From: a bacterium
GTDB taxonomy: Bacteria > RUG730
NCBI GenBank assembly: GCA_031551405.1
Contig: JAVBNQ010000005.1
Location: 33,743-97,742 of the forward strand
Length of the DNA: 64,000 nucleotides
Direction of reading: 5' to 3'
Every line of letters begins with the position of its first letter. The stretch's first letter is position 1. The notes beneath the pieces were generated by a model that saw only the letters and a list, made by a program, of their open reading frames with translations, was not told the origin of the DNA and searched no databases. This document shows positions 5,232 to 46,081 of this stretch, piece after piece. The position numbers and the translations under genes are program-made.

Positions 5232-5241
5232 ATTGTTTCGC

Positions 5242-6699: not shown

Positions 6700-10787
<4,088 letters not shown>

Positions 10788-25764: not shown

Positions 25765-26517
25765 ATGAAAATTGTAAGCTTAAATCCTACAACAATGAAT
25801 CTAATAGTCGAATATATGAGCTTGCCCAACTCTGATGTTTATAAAAAAATTTTATTTGAAAAAATAAAAAATACTGAACTTGGCCTCGAAGCTCTAGAAA
25901 GTCAACAAAATGTTCTTCAAACTTTTAAGACTTTAAGCTCTCCTGAAATACCTAGTTCAGCTTCCATTACAATAACAGAAAAACTCCAAAAAATAAAAAG
26001 CAAGAAGCAAATTAGTTCTGCCAGTGATATTGCTTATAAATTTTTAGCTACACTGAAAACTGCTCTACAAATAAGTCTCGTAACAATTGGAGCGTTTTTG
26101 ATTGGAGTTGGAACAATCGCTTATTTTGTAAACCCTGAAAAAAACATTCAAAATAACAATATCTCATCACCTGCTTTTACTACTAACATTAATTCAACCT
26201 TATCAAAAACTTCTAACACATCTCTAAATTTTCAAGGGAACATCACTTTGGACTCAATCAAAAGTTTTGATTTGGAAAAAAATGAAAATCCACAAAATCT
26301 AAAAGAAAACTCTTTATATGCATTTCAAGGTGAATTAAAAAAATATAAAGCTATAACAAAAGATTCTGAATCTAAAGATGTTTTGGAAGTCTTGCAAAAC
26401 GCTGAGAAAGAGCTCGATAAAAGTTTCATAAATACAAATAAAATCGATAATTATATATATTACGCAGTCTTATCTCAACATGACGTAAAAATTTTATCTG
26501 ACGAAGAGTTAGACTGA
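25765..26517 (+). CDS. Hypothetical single-pass membrane protein (250 aa), first gene of the giant-ORF operon
   Basis: GGGAGG RBS upstream; one hydrophobic helix (LQISLVTIGAFLIGVGTIAYFV); stop lies 13 nt before the start of the 14.2-kb ORF. Confidence 0.55.
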   Translation: MKIVSLNPTTMNLIVEYMSLPNSDVYKKILFEKIKNTELGLEALESQQNVLQTFKTLSSPEIPSSASITITEKLQKIKSKKQISSASDIAYKFLATLKTALQISLVTIGAFLIGVGTIAYFVNPEKNIQNNNISSPAFTTNINSTLSKTSNTSLNFQGNITLDSIKSFDLEKNENPQNLKENSLYAFQGELKKYKAITKDSESKDVLEVLQNAEKELDKSFINTNKIDNYIYYAVLSQHDVKILSDEELD

Positions 26518-26530: not shown

Positions 26531-29500
26531 ATGTTTATAAAAAATTTAAAAATTACAAAATGTTTGGCGTCATTCTTGGTTGTAACGACTTTTACATGTT
26601 TTATCTTGAATGACTACACCTATGCCCAAACTCCTGCAAAAATATTGCCTTCTATCAGCGAATTACGTAAAGCAAGGGGATATGACAAAACTTTTACAAA
26701 CATCGGTTTTAGAGAAGAAATTGCGATTAATCAAAGCGCTGATTTATACGCTAAAAAAATGAACACAAATTATGCTAATCAGCAAACAAAAATTGAAAAC
26801 AATTTAAAAGCAAAAAAAGAATCTGCTTGGGCAACTGCCGAGAAAAAAACAAATGAAATAAAACAAACTGCCACATTAAATAGAGAACAATTAAATGTAA
26901 ACTATGCAAAAAATCTTGCAGATTACAAATCAACATATTCTGTTCAAAAAGCTAAACTTGCAAGCGATTTTGACATAAAAGTTGCACAAGTAGACAAAAA
27001 TTTGGCGAGGCTTAGAGACGTATCCGCAATAGCTGCAAAAAAAATTGATACTCAGTCCGGTATTAACAAAATAGGCAGCGTAGTAGCCTCTGGTATTATG
27101 AAACCTGTACAAGGGATTATGAGCGGTCTTACATCTGTAGTCGGTTTCTTTTCAGGAAAAGATAATAACCCTCTTACAAAAATAAATGACAAAATACAAA
27201 ACATTGATAAAGATTTGGCTGATTTAAAAAATTCTAAAAACGACAATATGGCTTCTATTCAAAAAAATACTGCTGATCAAATAAAAAATTTAGAGAAAAA
27301 AAAGAAAGATCTGCTTGAAGCTAAAAGTGCATCACTTACAAATATGGACAAAAGAAATGACGAAACTTTGGCAAATATGGAGCTTTCATTCAAAAATGAA
27401 ATAGAAGCCGTAAATAATCGTGAAAATTCTTACATAGCGAGTTTGGTGAATAGTACAACTGATGAACTTGCAAAACTAGACGGTGAAATAAAATCCAGAC
27501 TTGAAGATTTGTACACACTTACAAACTCAGAGCTGGAAAATTATTTATTTGGAGACGATGGCTTATTTAAGAAAGCTTATGAATACGATGACAAAACAGC
27601 CTTACGAAATTTAAAGTCTGATCAAGATAATTCCAATCGTGAAATTCAAACTGACGAAAAAAGCGGTGGTTATATTGGAAATTTAGCTAACTATATGGGA
27701 GTGGAAGAGCAAAAAAGGGCATTTGCAAGTAATCAATACTTAGAAAAAGCAGAAAAACTGCTTTTGTCAGGAGCTAGTGATGGTACGAGAAGAGCCGGTG
27801 AATTTGCTGCAGCAGCCGGTGTAGTTAGCAAAGATGCCCAAGTTTTGATGCCACGCGATTTTTCTGATGCAAGTTTGGCTCGAAGCGGCGCTATAGAGCT
27901 TAATATGGATCAAGGCGAAGCCGCAGGCACCGTCCGAGATAACAAAGTAGCAAATATAGACGCATCATTCTTAAAATCCCAGCAAGAACTTGCCGACTAT
28001 TCTGACAGCATAGTCAAATATTCCGACGAAGTTACCGGTTTTCTAGAGGATACAATCAACAATTTTGCTGATAATTCGAAAAATGAGATGAATGATTTTA
28101 CCAACAAAACGGTCAAAAAGAATGATGAAATCAATCAAAAAGAAATACAAGCGCTTTTGGCATTTGTAAAAGAACTGCAACAATATATGGATATGGTCTG
28201 GCCGGAGTCACAATCTGCAGGCTATGAGCGAGCTACTGAAGCATTAAAAGAAGCCGCTGAATTATACTTGAACGCGTCAATTGATACCCTTGCTATTATA
28301 CTTGCTGTAGTCTTAGGAATTGTCGGTGGATTAGTTGCGACTATTATAGGTGCAATATTTCTTATAACTACAGGAATTCCTATGATATTTTCCGGTATTT
28401 TAACTCCCTGCGGAATTGTACAGGTAGTGGCCGCTGTAGCTAGCTTAATAATCGGTATTACCGGAGTAGCTCTTGGTATTTGGGGAATTATATCAGCCAT
28501 AAGTGAACGTGAACAATTAAAAACTGCGCTCGAAATAGCAAGTAATAATGTCAAGGTTTTAAACGATTTGTTGCCGGATCCATCAAAAAAAGACTGGCCT
28601 GAGAACACACCTAGTGAGTACAAAGTTTTCATGGATGCAGAAAAAAATTATAATTCAGCTATGGGCCAATTTAAAGTAATGTTTTTCAGACGTTTCGGCA
28701 TAGAAGGCCTAAAAAAAGTCAGAAACAAAATAAACCAAATAAACAGGTTATTAGGAAAAAAAGGCATCTCTGGACTGACTCATGACGAATTATTAAAATT
28801 ACAAGAACTACTCTTTTTCTTCAAACCTGCTTCTAACGATAAACTCCTAAAAAGATCGATGGAAGGACTGAAAAATACTTTTAAATCATATCAAGAGGCT
28901 TTAGAAAACTTCAAAAAATCCACAAAGACTGTAACATACACATTAAAAGAGCTCAAAGATGGAAGCATTGTAGAAACTACTTACACAAAAACTATTTGGG
29001 AGGCTTATCAAGACAAACAATTTTGGGGAGTTGTCGCCAGCGAATTAGATATGGCTCTAAACAATGCATACGTATTTGATATCGACGCAAATGGAAATGT
29101 AATAAAAGTAGATAGATCTGATGGATCAACTTACACTGAAGAATATAAGGATCCAGAAACCGGAGAATGGAAAACAGTTACTAAGAAGGGTTGGAGTGGC
29201 TTTGCAAATAAAGCATCTCAATCTGGAGATCGTTTTTTTTCTGCTATAAATAATGGCTTCACTAAGTTTATAGATGCAACAGATGCATTCTTCTCTGGAG
29301 TAATATCTGGTGTAATATACGGGGTTACTTTTGGTCACGTCAAGGTAGATAAATTTCCTACTTGGGTCAAGGGGATAACGACATTTATTCCAAATTTCTT
29401 CAAAGCTATAGTAGATATGACTTTTATGGGATATAACCTCACCTTGCATCTTGCAAAAGGGTTATCTCAGAATGGTGTTTTGAAAGGTTTACAAGATTTT

Positions 29501-32500
29501 GCTCTCGGAATGGCCTCTTTCCCTCTTGGCATTATTGAAAATGCGATTGGTATGAAACAGGGAACATTCTTAGATCTATTCAAAGGAAAAACTCACAGTG
29601 CAAAAGAAATTTGGGGCGAAGGAGAATACTGGAATCCCGGAGCAGCTGCAGGAACTTTAGGTTTCACTATTGTTATGATGATGGGGAGCCCTTCCGGAGC
29701 TTCTTCTATAAAAGCTTTTGTTAGTAATATTAAATCAGCACTTTCGTCAATATGGAACGCTATTAAGTATGTTGCAGTGAATGGAATATGGGCCGGATTA
29801 AAAGCTTCTTTCAAAGTTGTCGGATCTGCTCTAGGAAAAATAATAAATTGGACGAAATCCCAATTCAATTTCAAAACCGTACTAGGGAATGGTTTTAAAG
29901 CCGGAGTTAGTGCAGTTTTACATAACGTTTTATCAGGTGTTAAAATTGGATTAGGGGGTTTAGGAATCGCTGCTGTAGCTGTCTTAGGCGCAGCAGGGAG
30001 TATAGCAGGTAGCATAGTATTTGGCTTAGGAAAGAGTTTACTTACAGCGACTAAAGCTCTTGCCACTACTGCCTCTAAATATCTTAAAAAATTCTATAAA
30101 GAATCTTCTATAAAAAGTCTATTTAAATGGGCTTCTAAACAAGTTACTCCTAGAAAAAGTGCAGGAGCATTGCTTGCAGCCATATTATTAACCCCTGTTT
30201 TAATCGTATCTCACGTATTAGGTATTACACAAGCCATAAAACAGCTTCATACAGGTTTTGTAGGTTTAAGAAAAGAATATAAAGCAATGCAAAAGGTATA
30301 CAATTCTACCGGTTCTTATGTACAAACACGAAATGGAATGCCTGTAAACTTAAGGACTCAATTCATTCAAAATACTATCTCTTATGGACTGCAAGTTCCT
30401 CAAGTTTTAATTAACACTGTTATGTCTGTAGCGTTAGCTCCCCTTCTTATCACTAGCCCCCTTCTTTTTATAGGAGTTAAAATAGGTCACGTTTTCTGGT
30501 CGGAAGTTATCTTAGGGCAGAGAAAATTACGGGCGATGCAAAAAGAGCAGCAAAAAGAGCAATCTCGTGGAGCCATCAACTCTCAAAAAACCCAAATTGA
30601 ATCCGAAACCAATGCTCAAGCAGTGCAAGCTTCAGCAAGAAATCTTCGTGATCACGCGAAAGCTTTCGGTATAGAAGTTTTCGACAAAACAGGAAAAAGC
30701 TTAGGAGTAGTTAGCTATAAAGTCTTCATGGAAAAAATGATTAGTGGAGAGATATCCAGCTTTGCAGTAAATCAAGGAGGCTCTAAAAACGCAATATCGC
30801 TTGGTATCGGAGCACGCGAAGCCTTGACTAGAGATTATTTGGCATCACGAGATAATGCCAGTTTAACAAGACTACTTGCCCGTAATAACGGTAATAATAA
30901 ACTAGAGGCTTTGGTCGCGGCAGAGCGAGTTCAACGAAGCACCATAATCTTAAGAGAATATAACGCACAAAGACAAAAATTAACAGGTCAGTCAGCTATT
31001 AATTTTCTAGAACAAATGCTTAATCAAAATAAGTTACGAAGCAAGGTGGCCACTTCTGCACAAAAAGCCTTTTTAAAAATGCAAAATGCAGCTATAAAAA
31101 CAGAGCTCGCAAATCTACATGCTCAAGCACTTGCTGCAAGAATAGAATTCTTATTTAGTCAATCTAAGCTTGATCCTAAGATTGTTGAGCTACTTGATTC
31201 TAATTTAGGAATATTAGATTTCTCAAAAATAAAAGCCGGTGGTCTAACACGTAATGCTGCAGAAACACTTGTAAGACAAATGGGAGATATTTTGGGAGTA
31301 GTTTCAAAAAAATATCAAGAGAGCTGTTCAACAGGAAACAAACAAATCATAAAAGACTCAAGCTCTGTAGTCTCAGCAAGATTTAAAGAAATAGTAAACA
31401 GCGAAAAATTTCAAGAAATTTTAAAGATTGCAAGCCTAGCAGAGAGGCAACAAAAAATAATGGATTATATGAAAGAGTTGAAAGCAGTTGAAAGCGCTAC
31501 TCCTCCAACTGCTTTGGAAAGACTAGTAATTGATAGGATGACGCAAGTTCTTAGAGATAATCCTTCAATTACTCCTAAACAGCTAGCAAAAATGGAAGTC
31601 CAACTGCAAAAAGAAACTGTTTTAGCTCTAGAAACCGGAGCTCTTGTTTATAACGGGTTTACAAGTTATAACAACATTGCTGACGGTATAAAACAACTAG
31701 GCGTGCGACCTGATTTAGAATTAAATAACCAAAGAAAAGCAGTGAAAGCTACGACGGCATTAAATGAAATTGAAATTACAGCTCATCATCAGACTGTTGT
31801 TAGCCAACTTAACGAAATCATAGCAATGAAACCTGAACTCTTCAGCAAGAACCAAGGTCCCGCAGAAGGAAGAATTGAGGCACGAAGAAAGGCTAATTCA
31901 GATTTTATAGCTTCAGTACGCGAAAAATATAAAAATGACCCAATTGGCAAAATACTTGCAAAAAGACTTGAGTTTTTATTGGAAATCAACGTTTACAACA
32001 ACCAAGGAATTTCTGCAAAGGATATGAAGAATTTCACAAGTCTCCTCAAAGAAGAAGTTACTTTCGCCTTAAAATCCGGCGATATAGTTCCTGCTAATGG
32101 GCGTTTTATCTCGCAAACTCAAATGGAGGCATACCTAAAAACTTTTGCAAGCGAAGCCGAACTTATGCGGCATGCACAAGAAACCTTCAAAGTTCAAAAA
32201 CAAAAAGAGGCTTTAGATAAAAAATATGAGGGGAAACAGTTTGAAAAATATTCTAGAAGCAAAAGAAACGCAGCCCAAGATTTAGTCAAAGAATGTCTTG
32301 TTATAGGAAATATGGGAGAAAAAGAAAGACAAACTGCTATTGAAGCTCTTCAAAAACAAATATCTGATATAAAAATTGAAAGAGACACCGAAAGTCCAAG
32401 CATGAGAAAATTATTAAATCGACAAGTTGATGCATTAGAAATGTTGGTAAGCTCAATAAAAAACAACGATGTTGCGAGGATAAAAGAGGCTGTAACAGCT

Positions 32501-35500
32501 TATTTTTCAAAGGGAGGAGCGAGCAGTAGCGTGACAGCTGAAGCTTTCGTAGCAAGTATAAAATCTGTTATAACCGTTACAGAAGCATTTGCTGAGAGAG
32601 TAGATCAACTAAGTCGAATTTCGAAGGATCACGAAATTCATAAGGCTGATGGAAAATTAAGCATGCAAGACTTCCAAAAAAGAGAGGTCGGTGCAGAAAC
32701 CAAAGCAACATTAGTAATCTTAAAGGCTCAACTGGACGCATTAAAAGACACCTCAACAAGGCCAATTAGTTTAGAAACTTATAAAGAATATGCTGCTTTA
32801 AGAGAAAAAATTGAAAAAAGCGATGCTTACAAAAATGCAACCACTGAACAAAGAACAGCTGCGACCACTGCAACAACACCACATGAAATACTGGCGGCCG
32901 CACTCAATCCACTAGAGGCTGTGACATATAATAAACTTATGGAACAATTTAAAGGCTTAGACTTAAAAAGTGAGCAAAGCTTTAGGGACAGCTTTAACCA
33001 AGCTATACGAGAGAAAATTAATTTGTTTGTAGCGGAAGCTGGATCTTCGATGCCAGTCGCAACAATAGTAGATTACTTACGAGGTAATCGCTCTCGTATC
33101 CCAACAGATCTAATGGCTAGTTTAGAGCAACAAATTGTTAATAAACTTAAAGGACGCGAGGCAGTAACAGCTAACGATCTTACTAGAGATCAGGCTTTAC
33201 TTGGAACTCTGCCTCAGTCTTCAATTAGAGAAGTGTTAGCTGCTCGTCCTGACTTGCATAGGCTGATACTTCAAAAAGAAATATCTTATTTGCAAGCAAA
33301 AGAAACTGTTCCTGCTGCTGTCCAAGAAGCGAATAGGCAAGTAAACGAAACCCTAAGTCTTACTGATGCAGCTGCTCTTGTCAAACTAAAAGAAACAATC
33401 GCAACAATTAGCGATCCGACTTTAAAAAAACAAATAACCGCACTTATTAAAGGCAAAGAATTAGGAAAAATTACTTTTGCGAGATTGAGCGAGTTAATCG
33501 AACAAACAAAATCAAGTCCGGAAGCCACTCAAGCGTTAAACTTGATTGTTTCCAGACGAATGAATCAGCTACAAACGTATAAGAACGCAGCCGGAAGTGC
33601 CCAAAAATCTGCCTCTAATGCTCTTATTGCCGAATATAAAAAACTAGAAGACTACATTATGAAAGGTGTAGAAAAAGCATCCGCTGGATATTTGGAAATT
33701 TTAAATAGAGAGCATCTACCTCTAATGGAAAAAATGTATAAAATAATGGAAGCAGCCGGTATTCCAAAAGCAGAGATTTCTACTTTTGATCTATCAACTG
33801 GCAAAATAGGAGATAAAACTTTTTATCAAAAAGTCCAGGAACTTGCCAGTGCAAAAAAATTAACTTCAGCCGAATATATTCAAAGAGAATTATTCGGAGA
33901 AAACCATCAACTAACACATCTTCAAGCTGACGCACTCAGAGTCGTAGGGTTAAAACTGATAGAAGGACATAACAAAATAGGTGACGGAACCATAACAGCC
34001 AGGACAGCTGCACTCACTGACCCTAACTTCAATTTTACACAAAAACAAATCTTGATGATGGCAGCCAATGACCAAGGAATGATTGCTGCTCTTGGAATGG
34101 GAGGAGGAAAAACCAGAGTTTATCCTACTGTAATAGGCTCTATGATGCAAAAAGGAATAGGCGGAGGTATTGGTGAAATTCTGGTTTCTTCAAAACAAGA
34201 AATCGCTAATATGTTAGGCAATAAAGATTACATGGAAACCTTTTATGGTGTTAAAATGCTTGATGGAACCAAGTTGCATGCAGAAAATAAATTAGGAGAA
34301 ACACTCGCCAGCCACAAAAGAGACGGTATAAAAGTCATAGTTGTCTTTGACTTAGAGACAAGAGGACATTTGTCTCACGAGATCAGAACTAATAAAAGCC
34401 TGCAAATCCTAGACAAAATAGATATTTTGGCTATTGACGAAGCTGATGCCTTATCTCTAAAACAACAATCTTTTATTAATGCAGAAAGGCTGCCAGCAAC
34501 CGATCTGATTAAAAACCAAGTAGCGAAGATTCTAGAAACTTACGAAAAATTGAAAGGTGAAGGTGCAGAAAAATTTGATGCTAAAAAAGGCGGATTTGCT
34601 GACAAAACCTTTTTGGATGCAATGTTGGCCGAGCTAAAAACCAACGCTGAATTCCAAAAAGATCAAAGCTCTTACCTTAAAAAATCACTTTTTAGTTTAA
34701 GTGACAAAGAATGGACCGGACAAACCAGCGCAATGATAACCCAAGTTTTGAGAGGTCGTGCCGAGGTGCTTTCCGGGGAAACAAAAGGTGGATTCAAAGT
34801 AGACACTGTTGGTGGTATTCAAGTCGGAGTTCAAGATGGAAACAACTACAACTCAGTTGCCGTTCAAATTATAGATGCATTCCAAAAAAATGCACCACAA
34901 GGAGTTACTTTCTCAATCGAAAGATTTAAAACAACGACAGGAGCGAGTGTATCAGAATTTGCTGCTACGGTTTCAAAAACTACGGTTGAATCTGCCGCGC
35001 AAGAAATTCTTACCAGGGCACCCGGAGTTAGATTGCACGTTTTCGGAGGGTCAGGAACAACAGGCGGCGCTAAACGTATCAGCGAAGCTGTCACTGCTCC
35101 GGTAGCAGAAATCTCCGAAGCCTCTTTTGCTAACTATGCGTTCAATACGCAAGTACAAAAACCCGGACAGCGAACAACAGATGTGGTGGCTGCATTTGCC
35201 GGGAAAGCCTTGGAGGGTAAATGGGGACGACTTATCATTCAATCGCAAGAGAATTTAGCAGAAAACCTCTTGGCTACAATAGAAAAAGTAGCAGGCCCGG
35301 AAGCTGCAGCAGCATTTAAAAATGCGGCTAGCACTAGCGGCAAAGTTGAACGAATCTCAGATGTACAATTCGCGATAGAAAAATTAGACTCAGCCTTTGT
35401 CGATCCGGTTTTCATAAAAGGACAAGGAGGTGGATTCATAAGTCTCAACCAAGCTATTACAGACGGGTTAGTAAGATCTAATGGGAAAAAGTTTTTTGAA

Positions 35501-38500
35501 ACAGTGTCTGGCAGAGAAGTCAAAGTAAGTTTAGGTGATATTTTAGCGTCTCCAACAGCAATGAGAGAATTGAATATCCCAGAAAATCATAGAGCAACTT
35601 TACAAAAAATCATAGTAATAGATCATTACACTAATCCTGAAAGCGTGAGTGGTCTAGCAAAAAATACTTCAGCAAATGGCAATATTGTCTTTTCTACTGC
35701 AAAAGCAGGCAGAGGCATGGATTTTAGAGGAAAAATGCAATTACTAGTCACGGATGTTGATTCGCTTGCAAAAAATGATTTCCTACAAATATCCGGACGT
35801 GTTGGTCGCGGTGAGTCCAGAGATGTATTCCATAGAACAGTTCTAGTCAATCCTACTCAACTAAAATCTACTTTTACGGAACAAATTGAAATTTTGCAAC
35901 AAAAAAAAGAATTCATGCAAAGCAGTACTCTAGGGAAAGAATTTATCGAACAAGGAGGCGGCCTTAAAGCTCCTCCTGCAGATAGGCAAATTACTCAATC
36001 AGAACAAGCATTCAGGGCAGAGTGGACGGAATTACAAAGTAACTTAAAAAGTTTAAAAATATATGAGAAACAGCTTGATAAAGGATCATTTACGCAAGCG
36101 TCATCCGCAGAAATGATCCGAGCCAGCACAATAATACAAGGAGAATTTAAATCCAACGGAGCAGCTCTTTATCAAATAGGCGAAGGCGTCAGGTCAGCGA
36201 TCCTAAAAATTCCTCTTGAAAGGATGAAAGCCAAAGCTGAAGCTATGGGTAATACTCATGACGCAGCTTTGATCCAACGCATAATAGATGAAATGATCAG
36301 AACAAACAAAGGAGCTACGGCAGATGCTTTGATCTTGCAAGAGTCCGGATGGAAAAATCCAAAAGAAGTTTTTGAAAAAATGATGAAAGCAAATTACGAG
36401 GCTGCCATTCAAATTTATAAAATGTTAGATGCAGTAAGAATCACAGATCCAAAAAGCATGATGGAAAAAGTAGCTTCACCTATTACAAGAAAAGTAGCAA
36501 TAGGTGAATTCAATGTTGGGTTACAAGATCCAACATTATTAAGAGAAGTTAGAACTCGTGTTTTGGATTTAGAACAAGGGAAAATGGAAGTCCAAGCAAT
36601 AGGCAAAAGAGATTGGTATGAAACCAGAGCTAAAGCAACTGAAAAAGCTAAATCCGGACAACTGACTACTTTATCAGAAATTAATTCAATGGATAACCCT
36701 CAAATAAGTCGTCAAGTCTTGGAAACCGTAACTTATGTAGCGAAAGATTTGAATCCTCAACGGAAAACTACGGCATCAGACTCATACGCTCCAAAACAAA
36801 CCGTAAGAATAGCCAACCAGGCTCTTACCGGCGTAAAAGGGACAGAAGCCGTAAGGGTAAATACCAGTAATGCAGGACAGCTGGTATCGTCTTTGGAGCA
36901 TTACAAGACAAAAGGCGATAGAATAGGTGCCATTGTTTTGACTAATAGACAACTCATAGCATTACAGCAAGATCCGATTGCTTATAAAAGATTCCAAGCC
37001 GAAATTGTAGCTACTACAGATTGGAAACATGGAGTATTCGCAACAGGACAAGCTAAAATTTTAATAGCAGACAGTGATCAAGATATAACCAATGGAAGAG
37101 CCAAGACGCTAGAACAAGCACTTGGACAAGCACAAGCTCTTAAACCACCTATTGTAACAAATGCCACTCAAATAGTTCTAGGCAGCTCATCTCAAGATAA
37201 GAAAAAAGACAAAGATTTACAAAAACTTTTTGAAATTCAAACAAGAGATTTGCGAGCAGGTATTGACCCTAAGCTTTGGGATGATTTGGATACTAATCTA
37301 GAAATCGCTATTGATAAACAACGATTTGATGCAATGCCAGAAAAGGCGAGACAAGAATTTATAGCACAATTGGGACGAGAAGCGCAATTACGAAGTGAAC
37401 GCGCTAGGGACGCTGGTAAAGATACCGGTCAAGTAACCGCAGTTTTGAGAGAGGAGGTAGTGGATACGAGTCTTAAGGGAAATCAAATCGCAACTTCCGT
37501 GCTCAGTAAGCTCTCGACACAGCCTACTGTTAGATCCGAAGCTCTTGCGCTGTTAATAGAAGCTCAAGAATCAGAAATAGCCAGACTAGAAAAAGAAAAG
37601 GGAGCAGCATCAGACCTAGAAAGCTTAGGCCTTGAAGCTTTATTTAATGAAGAAGCGCTTGTTACTAAAAAAGATCTTGAAGCCAAAATACAAGACCTTA
37701 AAGTCGAAAGACAAAAACTACTTGCCCTAGAAACTGAGGTAAGAATATTCGAAACTATGGATAAAATAATAGACACAAAAACAAACAAACAAGAAGCTTT
37801 GGCTTTAACAAAAAAAGCTCAGACTTTACTTCCTCAATTGGCAGCACAAATGGATAGATTAAATGACGAAGCACAAGCTCTTCAGACGCAAGTTCAAGTT
37901 ATAGGCCAAGAACTTTTAGATCAAGGGAACTTGGCTGTTCTCGCTAATATTGTAAGAGGAGACCAAGCGCCTCAAATCATACAACAATATACAACCCTTA
38001 GAGACGATAAAAATGAAGCTTTAAAAGATAAATTGCTTGCAATCGCTAGAACTGCAGCCCCTACTGAACAATCTAAAGTTATGACGCATTCAACACTACT
38101 CATGACTACTGATGCTACTGTTAATGCCGGATATGCAAAAATAGAAGAACAATACAGAAAAGACGTATTCCCAGGCGTTTATCAGCCTACTGTAAATGCT
38201 GATGCTAATGCTACGACTTCACCTCAACAGCCCGTTGTAGTTCAAAATGCCAGATTAGACTTGGCTCAACCTGCGATACTCAAAGATGCAAAAGCAAAAC
38301 TTAAAAATGAAGCGGAAGGAAACAAATCTACCTCTAGCCAAGGACCATCAACTGCTGCTAAAACACAATACACTTCTCTCGTGACCATGGAAGTACGCGA
38401 CAAACTTTTAACAGAAACAGGAGTCAGTCAGCTAGAAATCGTTATAAGTACAGAAGTCCAAGACGCTGCTGAAAAAGCTCTAAGAGATGGCGTACAAAAA

Positions 38501-40768
38501 GCTAATGAAGAAACTCGACGCTATGTTACTTCATCTCCAAGACAAAGTTTACCAAAATCTCTGGTTGTAAAAAATTCTAAAGGAAAAATCGTAGATATTT
38601 ACGAATTAAGGAATGGTCAACTAGAAAGCAGAAACGCAGGAATCCAAAGTAGGCTTACTCGAGGCAAAGAAGACACTAGTGATCAAATGCAACAGCTGAT
38701 GGCTATGTTCGCGCAACAAGGTATGGCGCCTCCTGCTGGCTTGGGAGCTAACGGCGGAGTCGGTGAAATAAAAATTAAATCTTTTACATTTGGCAAAAAA
38801 TCCAAGCAACTAGAACAATTAATGAGTGAGCTCAGTAAACAGAAAAAAGATGGCTCAGTAACTATCGATTTAAGCGAAGTTGCTGACGAAAATGTAGAAG
38901 AATTCGTAAAAAGCGTTTATTCTGCGATATTCGAAGATCAAAACTTGCCAAGAAACGTTGTCTTCAAAAAAGGCAGTAAATATTTTGGAGCAACTGATGC
39001 TGATTTGAGAAATTACCTCGAAACCTGGAGTGGAGCTGAAAGAACTTTAGCTTTAGCGGACTCTGCATCATTATCATTTAGCAAGCAAAATCCGGACGTT
39101 CTTTTGCGAGAAGACACACTCAAGCCTAATTTAACTGATTCATATTTTGCAGAAAAACCTTTTAGACAAGAGGCTGATCAGGTCGCTCTTGCCAAAACAT
39201 ACGAAGGACGTGAATATTTCGACGGTAAAATAGAAATTGAAGGCGACAATGGTCCGACGACTAAAGCTTTATTCAAAAAAGACGTGACCGCAAACAAAGT
39301 TATAATAACTATTGATCCTGAAAACTTGAGATATTTTGGCGCTGAATATAATGCCCTCGAAAAATTCATAAAAGGTTTGCGGCAGATCGAGCTCGAATTC
39401 AAAGATTTAGGCAAAGATCTCGAGATAGTTATTCCAACGACAACTGACTCTTCTTTAACGGAAACTAGAGCAAATCTTGTAACAGCCTTAAAAACTTTTG
39501 TAGACGAATATAAAACTGATGCCAGAGAATTCAGGCTTCTAAATTCTGCAGGCAACTTACTTTTCACTAATAAGCCTGACAACTATGAAAAAACCACGTC
39601 TTTAAGCGTTGGTAAAAATGTTTTGGCTGTGCCGGAAACTGTTTTTTCTACTGACGCTGCTTTCAAAGCTTGGCTGCAAAACGCTCTCAAAACCGATGAA
39701 ATGAGAGCTCTCGACGAAAAAGGCGAAGGCGTAACTTTAGGCTTGGGCTCTGTTGAAAAGTTAACCGACGAAACTATACAAATGATTACAGAAGTTATTG
39801 CGAGGTCTTTCCCTGGAGAAAATGTAACTTTAGTCAATAAATTAGGGCAAGTAATAATTGACCCGGCTTCTCACCATGCCGTAACAAGTATTGCTGCACA
39901 ATCTTTAAGAATAACGAATGTACGATTGAATAAGCAAATTTTAAATATGCTCGACCAAAATAATATTGCTAATTTTACAAAAATCGAAATCTCTGAAGAA
40001 CTCGCAAATTCTCCTAGCGACATTTTACTTCTAACAAATTTTTTAACTCAAAAGGGTTTTAGCGGCGATGTAGTAGTAAAGACAAATTCCGGCGAAGTTA
40101 AAATTTGGAGAGAAGCATTGTTCGAAGCCGGCGCTATTGTAAAAGACGTAGGAAGCTTGGAAGACTTGAATAAGTTCCTCGCAACTTTGGACGAACAAGC
40201 TGCCAGCGTAGATTACACTAATTATTCTATAGTTTTGAATCTAAAATTCAGAGATAAATTTACTGACTGGAGCAAATTAAATGCTTTGATAAAAAGCGGC
40301 AAATTGAAAGATTTAACCATAACTCAACGTGGCCAAATCTTAGCGACTAATAACGCCAAAGTACAACAGTTCGTTAAACATTACGAAATCATCAGTCGTT
40401 CTCACGATATAAAACTAGAAACTTTGCGTAGCTACCAAGGCGAACTTCAACCTGTAAATGCTTCAGCTTTACAAAAAATTGATTTTGGAAAAATCGGTGG
40501 AGCAAGTACAACAGTTCAGCCAAACTTTAGTTTACCTGTTATCGCAGGAAGCGTTGTTGCTTCTTTCCAGGGAGCTGACGCATCTTTTGCTAAATATGTC
40601 ACTTACATGGGCAAATCTGACGTAACTCAAACTGCCAATTTTGCGGCGGAATTCAAAAAGAGTGTTCGCAGTTTGGGAGTTGAAGCCGGTCTAATCAGGC
40701 GAACTTCCGACGCTTTCCCTCGAACTACTGATACAGCGAACATGAGGCATTTGGATAGCGCTGCATAA
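26531..40768 (+). CDS. Giant protein (4,745 aa): signal peptide, coiled-coil region, hydrophobic/TM clusters, SF2 SecA/DEAD-like ATPase motifs, long C-terminal region
   Basis: Single uninterrupted ORF of 14,238 nt in an AT-rich genome; AGGGGG RBS; N-terminal hydrophobic signal-like segment; Walker A GMGGGKT (34094..34114), Walker B LAIDEAD (34427..34447), AGRGMD (35705..35722), QISGRVGRG (35786..35812); terminator hairpin downstream. Confidence 0.8.
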   Translation: MFIKNLKITKCLASFLVVTTFTCFILNDYTYAQTPAKILPSISELRKARGYDKTFTNIGFREEIAINQSADLYAKKMNTNYANQQTKIENNLKAKKESAWATAEKKTNEIKQTATLNREQLNVNYAKNLADYKSTYSVQKAKLASDFDIKVAQVDKNLARLRDVSAIAAKKIDTQSGINKIGSVVASGIMKPVQGIMSGLTSVVGFFSGKDNNPLTKINDKIQNIDKDLADLKNSKNDNMASIQKNTADQIKNLEKKKKDLLEAKSASLTNMDKRNDETLANMELSFKNEIEAVNNRENSYIASLVNSTTDELAKLDGEIKSRLEDLYTLTNSELENYLFGDDGLFKKAYEYDDKTALRNLKSDQDNSNREIQTDEKSGGYIGNLANYMGVEEQKRAFASNQYLEKAEKLLLSGASDGTRRAGEFAAAAGVVSKDAQVLMPRDFSDASLARSGAIELNMDQGEAAGTVRDNKVANIDASFLKSQQELADYSDSIVKYSDEVTGFLEDTINNFADNSKNEMNDFTNKTVKKNDEINQKEIQALLAFVKELQQYMDMVWPESQSAGYERATEALKEAAELYLNASIDTLAIILAVVLGIVGGLVATIIGAIFLITTGIPMIFSGILTPCGIVQVVAAVASLIIGITGVALGIWGIISAISEREQLKTALEIASNNVKVLNDLLPDPSKKDWPENTPSEYKVFMDAEKNYNSAMGQFKVMFFRRFGIEGLKKVRNKINQINRLLGKKGISGLTHDELLKLQELLFFFKPASNDKLLKRSMEGLKNTFKSYQEALENFKKSTKTVTYTLKELKDGSIVETTYTKTIWEAYQDKQFWGVVASELDMALNNAYVFDIDANGNVIKVDRSDGSTYTEEYKDPETGEWKTVTKKGWSGFANKASQSGDRFFSAINNGFTKFIDATDAFFSGVISGVIYGVTFGHVKVDKFPTWVKGITTFIPNFFKAIVDMTFMGYNLTLHLAKGLSQNGVLKGLQDFALGMASFPLGIIENAIGMKQGTFLDLFKGKTHSAKEIWGEGEYWNPGAAAGTLGFTIVMMMGSPSGASSIKAFVSNIKSALSSIWNAIKYVAVNGIWAGLKASFKVVGSALGKIINWTKSQFNFKTVLGNGFKAGVSAVLHNVLSGVKIGLGGLGIAAVAVLGAAGSIAGSIVFGLGKSLLTATKALATTASKYLKKFYKESSIKSLFKWASKQVTPRKSAGALLAAILLTPVLIVSHVLGITQAIKQLHTGFVGLRKEYKAMQKVYNSTGSYVQTRNGMPVNLRTQFIQNTISYGLQVPQVLINTVMSVALAPLLITSPLLFIGVKIGHVFWSEVILGQRKLRAMQKEQQKEQSRGAINSQKTQIESETNAQAVQASARNLRDHAKAFGIEVFDKTGKSLGVVSYKVFMEKMISGEISSFAVNQGGSKNAISLGIGAREALTRDYLASRDNASLTRLLARNNGNNKLEALVAAERVQRSTIILREYNAQRQKLTGQSAINFLEQMLNQNKLRSKVATSAQKAFLKMQNAAIKTELANLHAQALAARIEFLFSQSKLDPKIVELLDSNLGILDFSKIKAGGLTRNAAETLVRQMGDILGVVSKKYQESCSTGNKQIIKDSSSVVSARFKEIVNSEKFQEILKIASLAERQQKIMDYMKELKAVESATPPTALERLVIDRMTQVLRDNPSITPKQLAKMEVQLQKETVLALETGALVYNGFTSYNNIADGIKQLGVRPDLELNNQRKAVKATTALNEIEITAHHQTVVSQLNEIIAMKPELFSKNQGPAEGRIEARRKANSDFIASVREKYKNDPIGKILAKRLEFLLEINVYNNQGISAKDMKNFTSLLKEEVTFALKSGDIVPANGRFISQTQMEAYLKTFASEAELMRHAQETFKVQKQKEALDKKYEGKQFEKYSRSKRNAAQDLVKECLVIGNMGEKERQTAIEALQKQISDIKIERDTESPSMRKLLNRQVDALEMLVSSIKNNDVARIKEAVTAYFSKGGASSSVTAEAFVASIKSVITVTEAFAERVDQLSRISKDHEIHKADGKLSMQDFQKREVGAETKATLVILKAQLDALKDTSTRPISLETYKEYAALREKIEKSDAYKNATTEQRTAATTATTPHEILAAALNPLEAVTYNKLMEQFKGLDLKSEQSFRDSFNQAIREKINLFVAEAGSSMPVATIVDYLRGNRSRIPTDLMASLEQQIVNKLKGREAVTANDLTRDQALLGTLPQSSIREVLAARPDLHRLILQKEISYLQAKETVPAAVQEANRQVNETLSLTDAAALVKLKETIATISDPTLKKQITALIKGKELGKITFARLSELIEQTKSSPEATQALNLIVSRRMNQLQTYKNAAGSAQKSASNALIAEYKKLEDYIMKGVEKASAGYLEILNREHLPLMEKMYKIMEAAGIPKAEISTFDLSTGKIGDKTFYQKVQELASAKKLTSAEYIQRELFGENHQLTHLQADALRVVGLKLIEGHNKIGDGTITARTAALTDPNFNFTQKQILMMAANDQGMIAALGMGGGKTRVYPTVIGSMMQKGIGGGIGEILVSSKQEIANMLGNKDYMETFYGVKMLDGTKLHAENKLGETLASHKRDGIKVIVVFDLETRGHLSHEIRTNKSLQILDKIDILAIDEADALSLKQQSFINAERLPATDLIKNQVAKILETYEKLKGEGAEKFDAKKGGFADKTFLDAMLAELKTNAEFQKDQSSYLKKSLFSLSDKEWTGQTSAMITQVLRGRAEVLSGETKGGFKVDTVGGIQVGVQDGNNYNSVAVQIIDAFQKNAPQGVTFSIERFKTTTGASVSEFAATVSKTTVESAAQEILTRAPGVRLHVFGGSGTTGGAKRISEAVTAPVAEISEASFANYAFNTQVQKPGQRTTDVVAAFAGKALEGKWGRLIIQSQENLAENLLATIEKVAGPEAAAAFKNAASTSGKVERISDVQFAIEKLDSAFVDPVFIKGQGGGFISLNQAITDGLVRSNGKKFFETVSGREVKVSLGDILASPTAMRELNIPENHRATLQKIIVIDHYTNPESVSGLAKNTSANGNIVFSTAKAGRGMDFRGKMQLLVTDVDSLAKNDFLQISGRVGRGESRDVFHRTVLVNPTQLKSTFTEQIEILQQKKEFMQSSTLGKEFIEQGGGLKAPPADRQITQSEQAFRAEWTELQSNLKSLKIYEKQLDKGSFTQASSAEMIRASTIIQGEFKSNGAALYQIGEGVRSAILKIPLERMKAKAEAMGNTHDAALIQRIIDEMIRTNKGATADALILQESGWKNPKEVFEKMMKANYEAAIQIYKMLDAVRITDPKSMMEKVASPITRKVAIGEFNVGLQDPTLLREVRTRVLDLEQGKMEVQAIGKRDWYETRAKATEKAKSGQLTTLSEINSMDNPQISRQVLETVTYVAKDLNPQRKTTASDSYAPKQTVRIANQALTGVKGTEAVRVNTSNAGQLVSSLEHYKTKGDRIGAIVLTNRQLIALQQDPIAYKRFQAEIVATTDWKHGVFATGQAKILIADSDQDITNGRAKTLEQALGQAQALKPPIVTNATQIVLGSSSQDKKKDKDLQKLFEIQTRDLRAGIDPKLWDDLDTNLEIAIDKQRFDAMPEKARQEFIAQLGREAQLRSERARDAGKDTGQVTAVLREEVVDTSLKGNQIATSVLSKLSTQPTVRSEALALLIEAQESEIARLEKEKGAASDLESLGLEALFNEEALVTKKDLEAKIQDLKVERQKLLALETEVRIFETMDKIIDTKTNKQEALALTKKAQTLLPQLAAQMDRLNDEAQALQTQVQVIGQELLDQGNLAVLANIVRGDQAPQIIQQYTTLRDDKNEALKDKLLAIARTAAPTEQSKVMTHSTLLMTTDATVNAGYAKIEEQYRKDVFPGVYQPTVNADANATTSPQQPVVVQNARLDLAQPAILKDAKAKLKNEAEGNKSTSSQGPSTAAKTQYTSLVTMEVRDKLLTETGVSQLEIVISTEVQDAAEKALRDGVQKANEETRRYVTSSPRQSLPKSLVVKNSKGKIVDIYELRNGQLESRNAGIQSRLTRGKEDTSDQMQQLMAMFAQQGMAPPAGLGANGGVGEIKIKSFTFGKKSKQLEQLMSELSKQKKDGSVTIDLSEVADENVEEFVKSVYSAIFEDQNLPRNVVFKKGSKYFGATDADLRNYLETWSGAERTLALADSASLSFSKQNPDVLLREDTLKPNLTDSYFAEKPFRQEADQVALAKTYEGREYFDGKIEIEGDNGPTTKALFKKDVTANKVIITIDPENLRYFGAEYNALEKFIKGLRQIELEFKDLGKDLEIVIPTTTDSSLTETRANLVTALKTFVDEYKTDAREFRLLNSAGNLLFTNKPDNYEKTTSLSVGKNVLAVPETVFSTDAAFKAWLQNALKTDEMRALDEKGEGVTLGLGSVEKLTDETIQMITEVIARSFPGENVTLVNKLGQVIIDPASHHAVTSIAAQSLRITNVRLNKQILNMLDQNNIANFTKIEISEELANSPSDILLLTNFLTQKGFSGDVVVKTNSGEVKIWREALFEAGAIVKDVGSLEDLNKFLATLDEQAASVDYTNYSIVLNLKFRDKFTDWSKLNALIKSGKLKDLTITQRGQILATNNAKVQQFVKHYEIISRSHDIKLETLRSYQGELQPVNASALQKIDFGKIGGASTTVQPNFSLPVIAGSVVASFQGADASFAKYVTYMGKSDVTQTANFAAEFKKSVRSLGVEAGLIRRTSDAFPRTTDTANMRHLDSAA

Positions 40769-40926: not shown

Positions 40927-41670
40927 CTAAATCAAATCAAATGCATATTCAATAATCGAAACCAAAGTAAGCGCAGCAGTCTCGACTCGCAAAATATTTC
41001 CGTTCAAATGAAAATCCTGCCAATTATTTTTCTTCGCTTGCTCAATTTCAAAATCTTCAAAACCGCCTTCAGCTCCGACGATAAGATTTATATTTTTGTA
41101 TTTTTCGCGATAATTCTTCAAAATCGGTTTTAACGGATTTTCGCCTTTTTCCCAAGCGATCAATTTTAGCGAATTTGGCTCTGAAATTTTCAAAATATTT
41201 TCGAATTTTTGGGGAATAGAAATGGTAGGAATGATTGGATTTTTGGATTGTTTTACGGCGGAAAGAGCGATTTTTTGCCAGCGTTCGAGCTTGTGAAGAC
41301 CAGATTTTTCGTCTAAATTTACGACCACATTTTTTGTCAAGATCGGAACGATTTTTGTAATCCCGAGCTCAACTGCTTTCTCGATAATAAAATCCATTTT
41401 ATTCGCTTTTGGCAAGGCTTGAAAAAGCGTGAAATCGTACTTTTTTTCGCAATTCTTTTTGTTCAAAATCTCAAAAAACACAACATTTTCTTTCATCTCG
41501 ATAAAAACTGCAAAATACTGACTTCCATTTTGATCCAAAAAATAAACTTTTTCGCCAGGTTTGATCCGCAGAACATAAACAAGATGCTTGAAATCGGCGT
41601 CGTGGTTTGTCAAAAAAACTTTATTTTGCGAAACATTTACATTTTTGCTGGATATTAAAAACTGCGGCAT
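40927..41670 (-). CDS. rsmE: 16S rRNA (uracil1498-N3)-methyltransferase
   Basis: 247 aa; RsmE-like N-terminal PUA-like region and C-terminal ...LIVGAEGGFEDFE motif. Confidence 0.7.
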   Translation of the reverse strand: MPQFLISSKNVNVSQNKVFLTNHDADFKHLVYVLRIKPGEKVYFLDQNGSQYFAVFIEMKENVVFFEILNKKNCEKKYDFTLFQALPKANKMDFIIEKAVELGITKIVPILTKNVVVNLDEKSGLHKLERWQKIALSAVKQSKNPIIPTISIPQKFENILKISEPNSLKLIAWEKGENPLKPILKNYREKYKNINLIVGAEGGFEDFEIEQAKKNNWQDFHLNGNILRVETAALTLVSIIEYAFDLI

Positions 41671-41674
41671 TTTT

Positions 41675-42820
41675 TTATTTAAACATTTTTTTTATAAAAT
41701 TTTCTTTATCTTCGTCTACAATTGTCTCGCCCATGCTCGCAGCAAAATCTTTCAGTTTTTGTTTCTGTTCAGGCGTCAGTTTTTTGGGAATACTCACGTT
41801 AATTTTCACAAACTGATCCCCCCTTCGTTTTGTTCCAAGAATCGGCAAACCCTTTTCTTTTAGACGAAAAATCGTGCCATTTTGGGTCCCGCTTGGAATT
41901 TTAAGTCCGGCTTGACCATCAATAATTGGAACCGTAATTTCAATTCCGAGCGTAGCATTCGTAAAACTAATGCTCTCTTCGATATATAAATTCTCTTTTT
42001 CTCGCCTGAATTTCGTGTCATTTATCACATTCAAAACTATGAATAAATCACCATTTGCGCCACCTCGAATACCGGCATTTCCTTCGTTCCTAAGCCGCAA
42101 AGTCGAACCGGTTTCAACTCCTCCGGGAATTTGTACGTCAATTGTCTTTTGTTTTCGAACAAATCCTCGACCTGAACACGACTCGCAAGGTTCTTTGATT
42201 TTTTGACCGGAGCCTTGACAATCCGGACAAGTCTGAACGCTCGTGAAAAACCCTTGAGAAAACCGAACTTTTCCAGCTCCGCCGCATCGCGAGCATTTCT
42301 CAATTTTTGTGCCTGGTTTAGCGCCTGTCGAGTTGCAGACTTCGCATTTTTCGGTATGCTCGATTTTTATTGTGCGCTTCATTCCAAACGCCACTTCCGA
42401 AAGATTTACTTTAAGCTCGTATTCTAAATCCTGCCCTTTTTGAGGGCCTTTACTTGCAGACGAAGCTCTTCTCCCTCCTCCAAACAAATCGCTGAACATT
42501 TCGCCAAAAATATCGCCTCCAACGTTAAAATCAAAACCCTCGAATCCACCTTGCCCGCCAAAGCCTTGCCCGAAACCTTGACCAGCGTTTCCACCAACTC
42601 CGGCGTGTCCGAATTGATCATACATTGAACGCTTTTGCTTGTCGCTCAAAACCTCGTAAGCTTCATTGATTTCTTTGAATTTCTCTTCAGATTCTTTGTT
42701 ATTGGGATTTTTGTCAGGATGATACTTTAGTGCCAATTTCCTGTAAGCGGTTTTTATCTCTTGTTCCGTCGCATTTTTGTTCACACCTAAAACTTCGTAA
42801 TAATCACGTTTTGTTGCCAA
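41675..42820 (-). CDS. dnaJ: Molecular chaperone DnaJ
   Basis: J-domain with HPD (YHPDKNP), G/F-rich linker, four CxxCxG zinc-finger repeats. Confidence 0.92.
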
Positions 42821-43167
42821 TTTTTTGCTCCAATAAATTTTATATCGTTAAATTTAGAACATGTTTTTAAAAAAAATTGCCGAACAATTTTTATAAATTG
42901 CTATTATATGAAAAAAGACAAGGAGAATTTTAATATTTCAATTTTTAAATTTTTGAAATCAAAAGAATGTCAAATATTTTCTTTTTTTGCTCAAAAATTC
43001 GTTTTTCCGTGTCAAGTCCACACGTTTCTAGACACAAAACTTCGTACTCGGCGTTCTTTTTTCTCGAAAAACCAAGTCATTGCACTACACACGTATTTTC
43101 GTGGCTCCGAATAAAAATTTTATTTTAGTCTTTTTGTGCTTGCCAAGGGAAAAAGCCTGGTTTTACT

Positions 43168-45030
43168 TTACTTCTTCTCCTCAAAATCCGCATCAACAAT
43201 ATTCTCGTCGTCTTTTTTGTTTTCGCCTGAAGAATCTGAACTTCCCTCCGGCTGCGCTTGATCTTGACTTTGTCCTTTTGCTTGAGCTTCCTTATAAATC
43301 GCTTCTGCCAATTTATACGACGCAGTCTGCAAACTTTCAGTTTTAGCTTTTATATCGTCTAAATTTTCTGTTTTCAAAGCTTCTTTCAAATCACTCGCAG
43401 CATTTTCAATCGCAGTTTTTTCTTCAACAGAAATTTTATCGCCGTGTTCTTTTAGCGATTTTTCCGTCTGATAAACCAAATTATCGGCATTATTTCTGAC
43501 TTCAATCGATTCTTTTCGTTTTTTGTCTTCATCGGAAAATTTTTCCGCGTCTTTCACCATTTTATCGATTTCTTCGTCGCTAAGTTTTGTCGATGCGCTA
43601 ATTTTTATGCTTTGCTCTTTTTGCGTGCCCAAATCTTTCGCAGACACGTGGATAATTCCGTTTGCGTCGATGTCAAACGTCACTTCAATCTGTGGCACTC
43701 CTCGAGGTGCAGGCGGAATTCCAACCAAATCAAATCTTCCGAGCTCGACGTTATCGTTAGCCAAAGCTCTCTCTCCCTGTAAAACTCGAATGCTCACAGC
43801 AGGCTGACTGTCAGACGCCGTTGAGAAAACCTGGCTTTTTCGAGTCGGAACAGTCGTATTTCTGTCAATAAGTTTCGTGCAAACTCCACCCAAAGTTTCA
43901 ATTCCCAAAGAAAGCGGCGTCACATCGAGAAGTAAAACGTCTTTCACTTCGCCGGTTAAAACTCCGGCTTGAATCGCAGCTCCCATCGCGACGCATTCCA
44001 TCGGATCAACTCCTCTCTCAATCGGTTTCCCGATAAAATCTTCGACGGTTTTTTGGATAATAGGCATTCTCGTCGGTCCGCCAACCATGATTATATTGTC
44101 AATTTCCGATGGTTTTAATCCGGCGTCGTCTAATGCTTGTTTGATAGGAGCCTTACATTTTCCCACGATCCCAGATACCAAATCGTCTAGTTTCGCGCGT
44201 CTTAGTTTCAGATTCAAATGCTTTGGTCCCGTCGCATCAGCAGAAATAAAAGGCAAATTTATATCCGTCTCGAGCGTAGTCGATAATTCGATCTTTGCTT
44301 TTTCAGCAGCCTCACGAAGCCTTTGAATCGCCATAGAATCGTTCCTCACATCTATTCCGGATTCTTTTTTGAATTCTTCGGCAATGTAATCGATGATCAC
44401 TTTATCCATGTCTGTTCCGCCAAGTTTCGTGTCTCCGCTGGTTGATTTTACTTCGAAAACTCCATGAGCCATTTCCATAATTGTAACGTCTAAAGTTCCT
44501 CCGCCCAAATCAAATACCAAAATTTTACGTTCTTGCCCGCTTTTGTCGAGCCCGTAAGCTAGTGCTGCTGCCGTCGGTTCATTAATAATTCTGACGACTT
44601 CAAGTCCTGCAATAGTTCCGGCATCTTTCGTCGCTTGCCGTTGGTTATCGTTAAAATAAGCCGGTACTGTAATCACAGCTTTTTCTACTTTATCGCCCAA
44701 AAATGCTTCTGAATCTTTTTTGATTTTTTGCAAAATGAAAGCTGAAATCTGTTGTGGCGTGTATTCTTTGCCGTGGACTTTGAATTTATAATCTTCACCC
44801 ATTCGTCTTTTTGCAGCCATTACAGTACCATCCGGATTTACGACTGCTTGCCTGCGCGCCGGTTCTCCAACCAAAAGTTCGCCTTCTTTTGTGAAAGCTA
44901 CGTACGACGGAAAAGATTTTCCTCCGACGCTAGTTCCTTCAGCGCTTGGTATTATCGTCGGTTTTCCGCCTTCCAAAACGAAAGCCGCTGAATTTGAAGT
45001 TCCTAAGTCTATTCCTATTATTTTTGCCAT
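43168..45030 (-). CDS. dnaK: Molecular chaperone DnaK (Hsp70)
   Basis: 620 aa; [18 protein letters not shown] and other Hsp70 signatures. Confidence 0.95.
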
Positions 45031-45257
45031 TTTTTTACTCCTCCGATATAAAAAAGTATTATTTTTTGTTTTATTGATAAAAAATTTAGAAATTTATATT
45101 TTCGCTTTTTCTCTAAAAATTGCTTTGCAAATTTTACTCAAAACCCCACCATGAAGGAAAGTGGAAAAATTTTTGAAAAACTGTTTGAGCCCAATTTTTG
45201 TGACGAGTTTTGTCCTTTGCAGGACAAGCATCAGCCTCCGCTTAGCGAAGATTTCAA

Positions 45258-45366
45258 GTAAAACTTTATTTCTCTGCTATTATTAGCCGTATGCAATACT
45301 TTTTGAAAATTTTTACCTATATCCGGAATGTTTGGAGCGTCCTTTTCTTTTGGTTCATTTTCTTTT
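45258..45366. repeat. Intergenic repeat element, copy A, between grpE and dnaK
   Basis: ~110 nt roughly 85% identical by eye to 57872..57978 (shared core ...aatgtttggRgcgtcSttttcttttggttcattttcttt). Confidence 0.6.
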
Positions 45367-45539
45367 TTGTGCAATTTCAAAAAAAATTTAAAAACTAACC
45401 TAAACTTTCGTTTTTTGAAATCCGCTGACTTTGCCAAGAATGAAAATTTTAAAAAATTTCTTTTTCTGGATTTTACTTTACTTTTACAAATTTTTTAAAA
45501 AAAATTCTCTCATTTTCGCAAGATTTTTTTATAAATTTT

Positions 45540-46073: not shown

Positions 46074-46081
46074 TTTGTCCT

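Follow-up and report, generated by a model that had tools for sequence, protein, structure and literature searches.

In the 64,000-nucleotide (nt) stretch of bacterial DNA analyzed here, referred to below as the window (contig JAVBNQ010000005.1 of assembly GCA_031551405.1, positions 33,743 to 97,742 of the forward strand), an uninterrupted open reading frame (ORF) of 4,745 codons, found in the ORF list and its translations at window positions 26531..40768 on the plus strand, encodes a giant protein with a SecA/DEAD-like superfamily 2 (SF2) ATPase module at its center (amino acids [aa] 2452-3106; 33884..35848). As judged from its predicted fold and its complete set of conserved catalytic motifs, the module is a genuine SF2 ATPase built of two RecA-like lobes. 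We tentatively favor the view that this region (aa ~2452-3106) is a very divergent SecA-type DEAD motor that is tethered to the membrane and may clamp and move, or remodel, a polypeptide there. All coordinates are those of the window, and all features of the giant gene lie on the plus strand.

Catalytic motifs and predicted fold of the ATPase module

The first part of RecA lobe 1 (34034..34486) extends from a Q-like motif to motif II and ends with the outgoing strand QQSFINAE. It opens with the string FTQKQILMM...ALGMGGGKT (aa 2502-2528; nt 34034-34114), in which the Q-like motif FTQKQ (aa 2502-2506) stands upstream of the Walker A motif ALGMGGGKT (aa 2520-2528; nt 34088-34114) with Lys2527, and it continues through motif Ia (VSSKQEIA) and motif Ib (FDLETRGHLSHE) to motif II, ILAIDEADAL (aa 2632-2641; nt 34424-34453), whose DEAD tetrad occupies aa 2636-2639 (nt 34436-34447). 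These are followed by motif III, FGGSGTT (aa 2838-2844), motif V, VFSTAKAGRGMDF (aa 3053-3065; nt 35687-35725), and motif VI, LQISGRVGRG (aa 3085-3094; nt 35783-35812). The four motif strings that the original prediction had read from the translation (Walker A and motifs II, V, and VI) each occur once in the ORF, all of them inside 33950-35870, and the spacing of about 110 aa that it gave between Walker A and Walker B was measured at exactly 110 aa up to the DEAD.

The distance from the DEAD to motif V is likewise close to the predicted one (~418 aa, against ~420), but this stretch turned out not to be a single insertion, since it holds the overlooked motif III and half of lobe 2. It is a composite of a mostly helical insertion of ~165 aa in lobe 1 (aa ~2653-2814; 34487..34972, delimited by the secondary structure of the model), the return strand SKTTVESAAQEILTR together with motif III, which close lobe 1 (34973..35062), the first strand and helix of lobe 2, and a second insertion of ~90 aa in lobe 2 (aa ~2935-3025; nt 35333-35605). 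The lobe 1 insertion sits where SecA carries its preprotein-binding (cross-linking) domain (PPXD), and it contains a family-invariant LR(A/G) helix and a conserved xDG. Lobe 2 itself (aa 2899-3106; 35225..35848) opens with the strand GRLIIQS and carries motifs V and VI at a spacing of ~20 aa.

The giant protein is identical to a database entry (P0002), a hypothetical protein of an Elusimicrobiota metagenome-assembled genome (MAG), and was also seen in Logan run SRR23967709. An exhaustive phmmer search of 1.84 billion representatives returned only 13 relatives, with lengths between 507 and 6,141 aa. Giants of 2.8-6.1 kaa (thousand amino acids) make up most of them, and those that bear a name are labeled "hypothetical protein [bacterium]." Scanning GTDB genomes with an alignment of the 5 closest family sequences added three orthologues, from Elusimicrobia RUG730 (ORF of 6,236 aa), Elusimicrobiota Cc175_bin64, and "bacterium Cli_8" (ORF of 5,503 aa), and one distant relative, from the Lachnospiraceae MAG Hm464_bin108 (L006; ORF 2-7690). 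In the latter, a Firmicutes MAG, a distant copy of lobe 1 (ALGMGGGKT, MDPTIRGHL, VDEVH) ends an ORF of more than 2,563 aa, so that the module family extends beyond Elusimicrobiota. The MAGs in which the relatives were found come from rumen and, to judge from isolate names, probably from termite gut. A word-indexed protein search, even with the family profile, returned a single 511-aa fragment and missed the query's own protein, so it is apparently blind to these giants.

In all, 17 homologous modules were collected, nearly all of them within giant proteins of uncultured bacteria. The Walker A signature GxGK[TS] is kept in every one of the 17 and DExD/H in 16, and motif III (G[GA]S[GA]T), motif V (GRGxD/N), motif VI (QxxGRxGR), and the Q-like motif are kept in most; in alignment A1, G419, S421, and T423 of motif III are invariant. 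Some distant members have altered motifs (DGGD in P0013; DELH and GVGID in P0008), while the window protein and its close orthologues retain every catalytic residue, and the module is predicted to be catalytically competent. The N-terminus, the central module, and the C-terminus are common to orthologous giants of 4.2-6.3 kaa, and the module is the best-conserved part, with 51% identity to the relative P0003 compared with 32-33% at the termini. For the whole 4,745-aa protein, neither Pfam nor NCBIfam gave a domain above threshold; segment-wise Pfam scans, which covered the remainder of the giant and seven relatives, gave no further domains, and self-BLAST found no internal repeats.

We modeled the stretch 33791-36070 with AlphaFold from an 11-sequence family alignment. 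The model has two RecA lobes, followed by long helices, at an overall predicted local distance difference test score (pLDDT) of 71 and a predicted template modeling score (pTM) of 0.48; the pLDDT is ~80-89 in lobe 1, 80-92 in lobe 2, and 51-59 around motif III. A model built from the single sequence reached a pLDDT of only 36. Foldseek against the PDB placed SecA at ranks 1-8 (E 1e-8 to 2e-7, with ~730 of 760 columns aligned), followed by DinG, SecA2, Hel308, XPD, and Brr2, and SecA held rank 1 in both fold searches. In the BFVD library of viral structures, the best matches (E 1e-8 to 6e-8) were giant-virus proteins labeled "ubiquitinyl hydrolase 1" or DUF3638, which are large eukaryote or giant-virus proteins with an embedded P-loop module; the others were helicases. 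Two tandem RecA-like lobes and the ordered motifs I, II, III, V, and VI, kept in the relatives, are the hallmarks of SF2. The SF2 motor of the original prediction is thus upheld, a RecA-like fold being predicted and the motifs being conserved across the 17 modules.

Comparison of the module with SecA and DEAD-box profiles

The family profile was compared by hhalign with an alignment of 13 SecA and SecA2 sequences and with one of 12 DEAD-box sequences, both assembled from annotated records. For the whole module, local alignment gave P values of 5.9e-6 over 127 columns for DEAD-box and 2.6e-5 over 301 columns for SecA, the latter starting at Walker A, crossing the insertion, and reaching motif III (query 78-438 to SecA 78-393). 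With the lobes taken separately, the P values were 2.9e-7 (DEAD-box) and 2.4e-5 (SecA) for the N-lobe and 8.5e-6 (DEAD-box), ~4.5e-5 (RecG/Mfd), and 4.7e-5 (SecA) for the C-lobe. In end-to-end global alignment, SecA scored 65.2 and DEAD-box 30.8. The global SecA alignment extends colinearly over SecA residues 5 to ~560, whereas DEAD-box does not align end to end. The SecA alignment pairs a family-conserved LFG segment with the SecA N-terminus (K-x-F-G) and the invariant LR(A/G) helix of the insertion with the ALRA helix of SecA; motif III is aligned to SecA ITFQNYFR...GMTGTA. When alignment A1 was compared with the single SecA sequence of Escherichia coli, the hhalign match was not significant (E 0.014).

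Shuffling the columns of the insertion (24 trials) lowered the local SecA score from 50.1 to 43.0 +/- 0.4 (maximum, 44.7; none of the 24 trials reached the observed value) and the global score from 65.2 to 32 +/- 22 (maximum, 53.8). The resemblance of the insertion to the PPXD region of SecA therefore appears to be order dependent, if weak. Pfam scans of the excised module gave only subthreshold matches, in the correct order, to DEAD (E 3e-4 to 2e-3; 18.5-20.8 bits, with a gathering threshold of 26) and Helicase_C (E 2e-3 to 0.016; 15.9-19 bits, with a threshold of 23.5). No Pfam match to the helical scaffold and wing (SecA_SW) was found in the giant protein, and the local hhalign alignment stops near SecA residue 557. 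Among PDB sequences, a single-sequence phmmer search found nothing above threshold, and the best that the family profile yielded was a marginal match to motifs V-VI of Mfd/RecG (E 0.01). Taken at the level of profiles and of the model, the catalytic lobes appear generically DEAD-like and the overall architecture SecA-like, and the profile comparisons do not point to SecA alone; they are at most suggestive of a SecA-specific ancestry of the module.

Membrane blocks, proposed action, and genomic setting

The giant protein begins with a putative Sec signal peptide (aa 1-32; 26531..26626), which was read from the sequence and a hydropathy scan and has a K-rich n-region, a hydrophobic segment at residues 8-26, and a candidate cleavage site TYA|Q; an N-terminal hydrophobic segment is also present in the relatives P0003, P0004, P0006, and P0008. 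A first hydrophobic block of about three membrane spans (aa ~586-656; 28286..28498) reaches a mean Kyte-Doolittle value of up to 2.85, and a second, glycine-rich block (aa ~1133-1323; 29927..30499) is followed by the basic stretch GQRKLRAMQKEQQK, the charge per block over aa 1001-1500 being +21 and +14. Weaker hydrophobic stretches lie between the two strong blocks, and by hydropathy scan this layout upstream of the module is common to the orthologues. The block at aa 586-656 also gave a weak NCBIfam match to the chlamydial inclusion-membrane protein GarD (NF047332; E 0.019, 14 bits against a cutoff of 100), which is probably compositional. Between the last membrane span and the motor lie ~1,130 residues. 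By the positive-inside rule and the ATP requirement of an ATPase, the motor and the rest of the C-terminal ~3,400 aa most likely lie in the cytoplasm. The signal peptide is thus no sign of export of the motor, as the latter follows the membrane block and most likely stays on the cytoplasmic side. With about 2,000 residues between the exported N-terminus and the motor, co-translational self-export is implausible.

On the reading of the module as a membrane-tethered SecA-type motor, the signal peptide and the polytopic block (aa ~586-1323) would hold the protein in the inner membrane, with an N-terminal coiled-coil part of ~550 aa on the periplasmic side and the ~3,400-aa C-terminal part with the motor on the cytoplasmic side. 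ATP would be held between the lobes by Lys2527, Asp2636/Glu2637, and Arg3090/Arg3093; its hydrolysis would open and close the cleft and shift the inserted domain, whose motion may clamp and push, or remodel, a polypeptide at the membrane. In this scheme we infer the topology, the substrate, and the direction of work; ATP-driven translocation or remodeling, which had already been proposed from the motifs, can reasonably be supposed for such a module. A bolder version, which we consider improbable, makes the giant a self-contained translocation machine, in which the glycine-rich membrane block serves as the conduit and the tethered SecA-like motor supplies the force, without SecYEG, for a client such as the product of the neighboring gene described below or parts of the giant itself. 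If it were true, the giants of Elusimicrobiota and Omnitrophota would represent a previously unrecognized class of secretion system, a single-chain "motor plus channel."

Directly upstream of the giant gene, and ending 14 nt before it, lies an ORF of 250 aa on the same strand (25765..26517), with one hydrophobic span, which is a candidate partner. Its homologue (26% identity, E 1e-12) is found directly upstream of the orthologous giant gene in L005, and the two genes look like a conserved two-gene unit; the 250-aa ORF itself had no Pfam, PHROG, or PADLOC match. The neighborhood is that of an ordinary chromosome (purH, rsmE, dnaJ, dnaK, grpE, hrcA, V/A-type ATPase subunits, lpxA/lpxI, obg, and Pmp-type autotransporters), and the DnaK of the window shares 86% and 79% identity with proteins of named Elusimicrobiota, with Omnitrophota next at ~72%. 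A phage or defense origin of the giant was rejected after PHROGs, PADLOC, and IMG/VR gave no relatives. The hrcA-grpE-dnaK-dnaJ-rsmE block (40927-47101) is kept in contigs of related Elusimicrobiota, in which the giant gene does not adjoin it; only in this genome does the giant gene sit between purH and rsmE.

Two further long coding regions were noted on the minus strand. A Pmp-repeat autotransporter with a signal peptide, Chlam_PMP repeats, and an autotransporter beta-domain (18305-23874) is distributed over at least five consecutive ORFs that lie in different frames, with the junction of passenger and beta-domain at an A8 homopolymer (~19393-19400); it could be a pseudogene or reflect slipped-strand phase variation or homopolymer sequencing errors. 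The other, an ORF of 2,328 aa (10819-17805), is rich in Chlam_PMP repeats (E 2e-50), and no autotransporter beta-domain was detected within the same ORF.

Alternative readings and comparison with known systems

Several observations count against a SecA-type motor acting on polypeptides at the membrane. Each lobe by itself matches DEAD-box slightly better than SecA, and against single E. coli sequences DeaD, RhlE, RecG, and Mfd outscore SecA. The isolated insertion showed no significant hhalign similarity to PPXD (P 0.3), its best match being the SecA ALRA helix, and the ~20-aa spacing of motifs V and VI is of the short DEAD-box/RecG type, as opposed to ~60 aa in SecA. The Pfam and NCBIfam SecA models (PF07517, PF01043) were matched neither by the module at E<=10 nor by 11 family members at E<=1. 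Confidence in the structural model is moderate and is low around motif III, the topology is drawn from a hydropathy scan and the positive-inside rule, and the motor stands far beyond the last span, C-terminal to the exported part. The SecA likeness of the original prediction accordingly stands for the fold searches, which SecA heads, and for the end-to-end alignment; it does not extend to the per-lobe scores, to the curated SecA models, or to the V-VI spacing.

Some of these observations lend plausibility to the main rival reading, a membrane-tethered, nucleic-acid-dependent SF2 helicase or translocase of the DEAD-box/RecG kind, which we regard as possible but doubtful. It would bind RNA or DNA at the cytoplasmic face, in localized RNA remodeling or in DNA handling like that of ComFA or FtsK-type anchored motors, with the insertion as an accessory domain that binds nucleic acid or has a regulatory role. 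DEAD (E 3e-4) and Helicase_C (E 2e-3) are the sole Pfam signals, the DEAD-box alignment gives the best score for either lobe, and the single sequences scoring best are DeaD and RhlE for the N-lobe and RhlE, DeaD, RecG, and Mfd for the C-lobe. Motif II spells DEAD exactly, a likeness to PTRELA and TPGRL is seen in motifs Ia (SxKQEI) and Ib (ETRGHL), the V-VI spacing is of helicase type, the profile match in the PDB is to motifs V-VI of Mfd/RecG, and DinG, XPD, Hef, and RecQ1 are among the close structural neighbors. However, both Pfam scores lie under their gathering thresholds, motifs II and III of DEAD-box proteins are not separated by a domain, the global profile alignment gives 65 for SecA and 31 for DEAD-box, and SecA comes first in both fold searches; moreover, Pfam scans detected no nucleic-acid-binding domain in the 4,745 aa, and no phage, plasmid, or defense context was seen. 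A degenerate or chance motif set without ATPase activity, left over from a decayed helicase or arisen by coincidence in a long low-complexity protein, would agree with the subthreshold scores of all curated family models and with the altered motifs of P0013 and P0008, but it is highly improbable given the intact catalytic residues of the window protein and its close orthologues, the confidently predicted two-lobe fold, and the position of the module as the most conserved part of the protein. Many Elusimicrobiota inhabit guts or the interior of protists, and the giant could also be an exported or host-delivered effector, targeted by its signal peptide and Inc-like hydrophobic block to the cell surface or a eukaryotic host membrane, with the ATPase in the host cytoplasm. 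The signal peptide, the bilobed hydrophobic block with its weak GarD match, the rumen and probably termite-gut origin of the relatives, the adjoining cluster of Pmp-type autotransporter adhesins, and the nonsyntenic position of the gene in related genomes would fit such a role. We nevertheless consider it unlikely, as the GarD match is far under its cutoff and probably explained by hydrophobic composition, no secretion-system genes were found in the window, Pfam scans found no eukaryote-like domains, and a protein of 4,700 aa with more than 8 hydrophobic segments would be hard to export by a classical signal peptide.

SecA is a soluble protein of ~900 aa that docks on SecYEG. Its DEAD motor has the order NBD1-PPXD-NBD2. 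NBD1 accommodates the PPXD between motifs II and III, and the helical scaffold, wing, and two-helix finger follow NBD2 on the C-terminal side. The module shares with SecA and SecA2 a pair of RecA lobes bearing motifs I, II, III, V, and VI, a domain that separates motifs II and III and whose flanking strands lie next to DExD and before G-x-[ST]-G-T, a profile alignment that is colinear from the N-terminus (L-F-G in the module, K-x-F-G in SecA) to motif VI, and, as we suppose for the module, action at the membrane. It differs from them in lacking matches to Pfam SecA_DEAD, SecA_PP_bind, and SecA_SW and any detectable scaffold, wing, or two-helix-finger region, in its short V-VI spacing and the extra ~90-aa insertion in lobe 2, and in being embedded in a 4,745-aa chain with its own membrane anchor. 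With the DEAD-box proteins RhlE and DeaD and with RecG/Mfd, it has in common the literal DEAD of motif II, the Q-like, Ia, and Ib motifs, the V-VI block with its spacing, and the best per-lobe scores, but it is set apart from them by the ~165-aa domain between motifs II and III, the lobe 2 insertion, SGT instead of SAT in motif III, the subthreshold Pfam scores, and the context of a membrane-anchored giant.

Giant bacterial proteins are almost wholly unannotated, and a divergent SecA-like motor beside transmembrane segments is the one recurrent enzymatic module reported in them. The combination of an SF2 motor with a signal peptide and transmembrane segments, which the original prediction had called unusual, is indeed so, but it is not unprecedented. 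Giants of Omnitrophota carry transmembrane regions together with divergent SecA_DEAD and SecA preprotein-binding domains, without scaffold and wing, and their authors propose a role in export (10.1101/2023.11.21.568195; 10.64898/2026.06.07.730766); the same SecA_DEAD combination occurs in some giants of Actinobacteriota (West-Roberts et al., bioRxiv 10.1101/2023.11.21.568195). Compared by published description, these proteins resemble ours in being very long and mostly unannotatable, in having a signal peptide and/or many transmembrane helices, and in the position of a divergent SecA-like motor, lacking scaffold and wing, after the transmembrane block. Omnitrophota and Elusimicrobiota are both uncultured phyla, and their DnaK sequences are near neighbors of each other. 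Differences from the Omnitrophota giants are the phylum itself, the size (4.7 kaa, under their >30-kaa cutoff, as opposed to >10-30 kaa), the failure of PF07517 and PF01043 to detect the motor, and the absence of the carbohydrate-active, dockerin, and peptidase domains reported there.

Should the motor move polypeptides without SecYEG, it would embody a new secretion principle; should it be a nucleic-acid helicase, the "SecA" label on giant proteins would need revision. At 4.7 kaa, with a module of ~690 aa that has clear boundaries and catalytic residues, the protein is a smaller and more tractable example for study of the motor function. Earlier descriptions of the combination are confined to preprints on giants of Omnitrophota and Actinobacteriota, and the protein described here matches them from another phylum, in a smaller and more divergent form. 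The occurrence of such a module in a second phylum, where it escapes all curated models, suggests a greater age or a wider distribution of the architecture than Pfam-based surveys convey.

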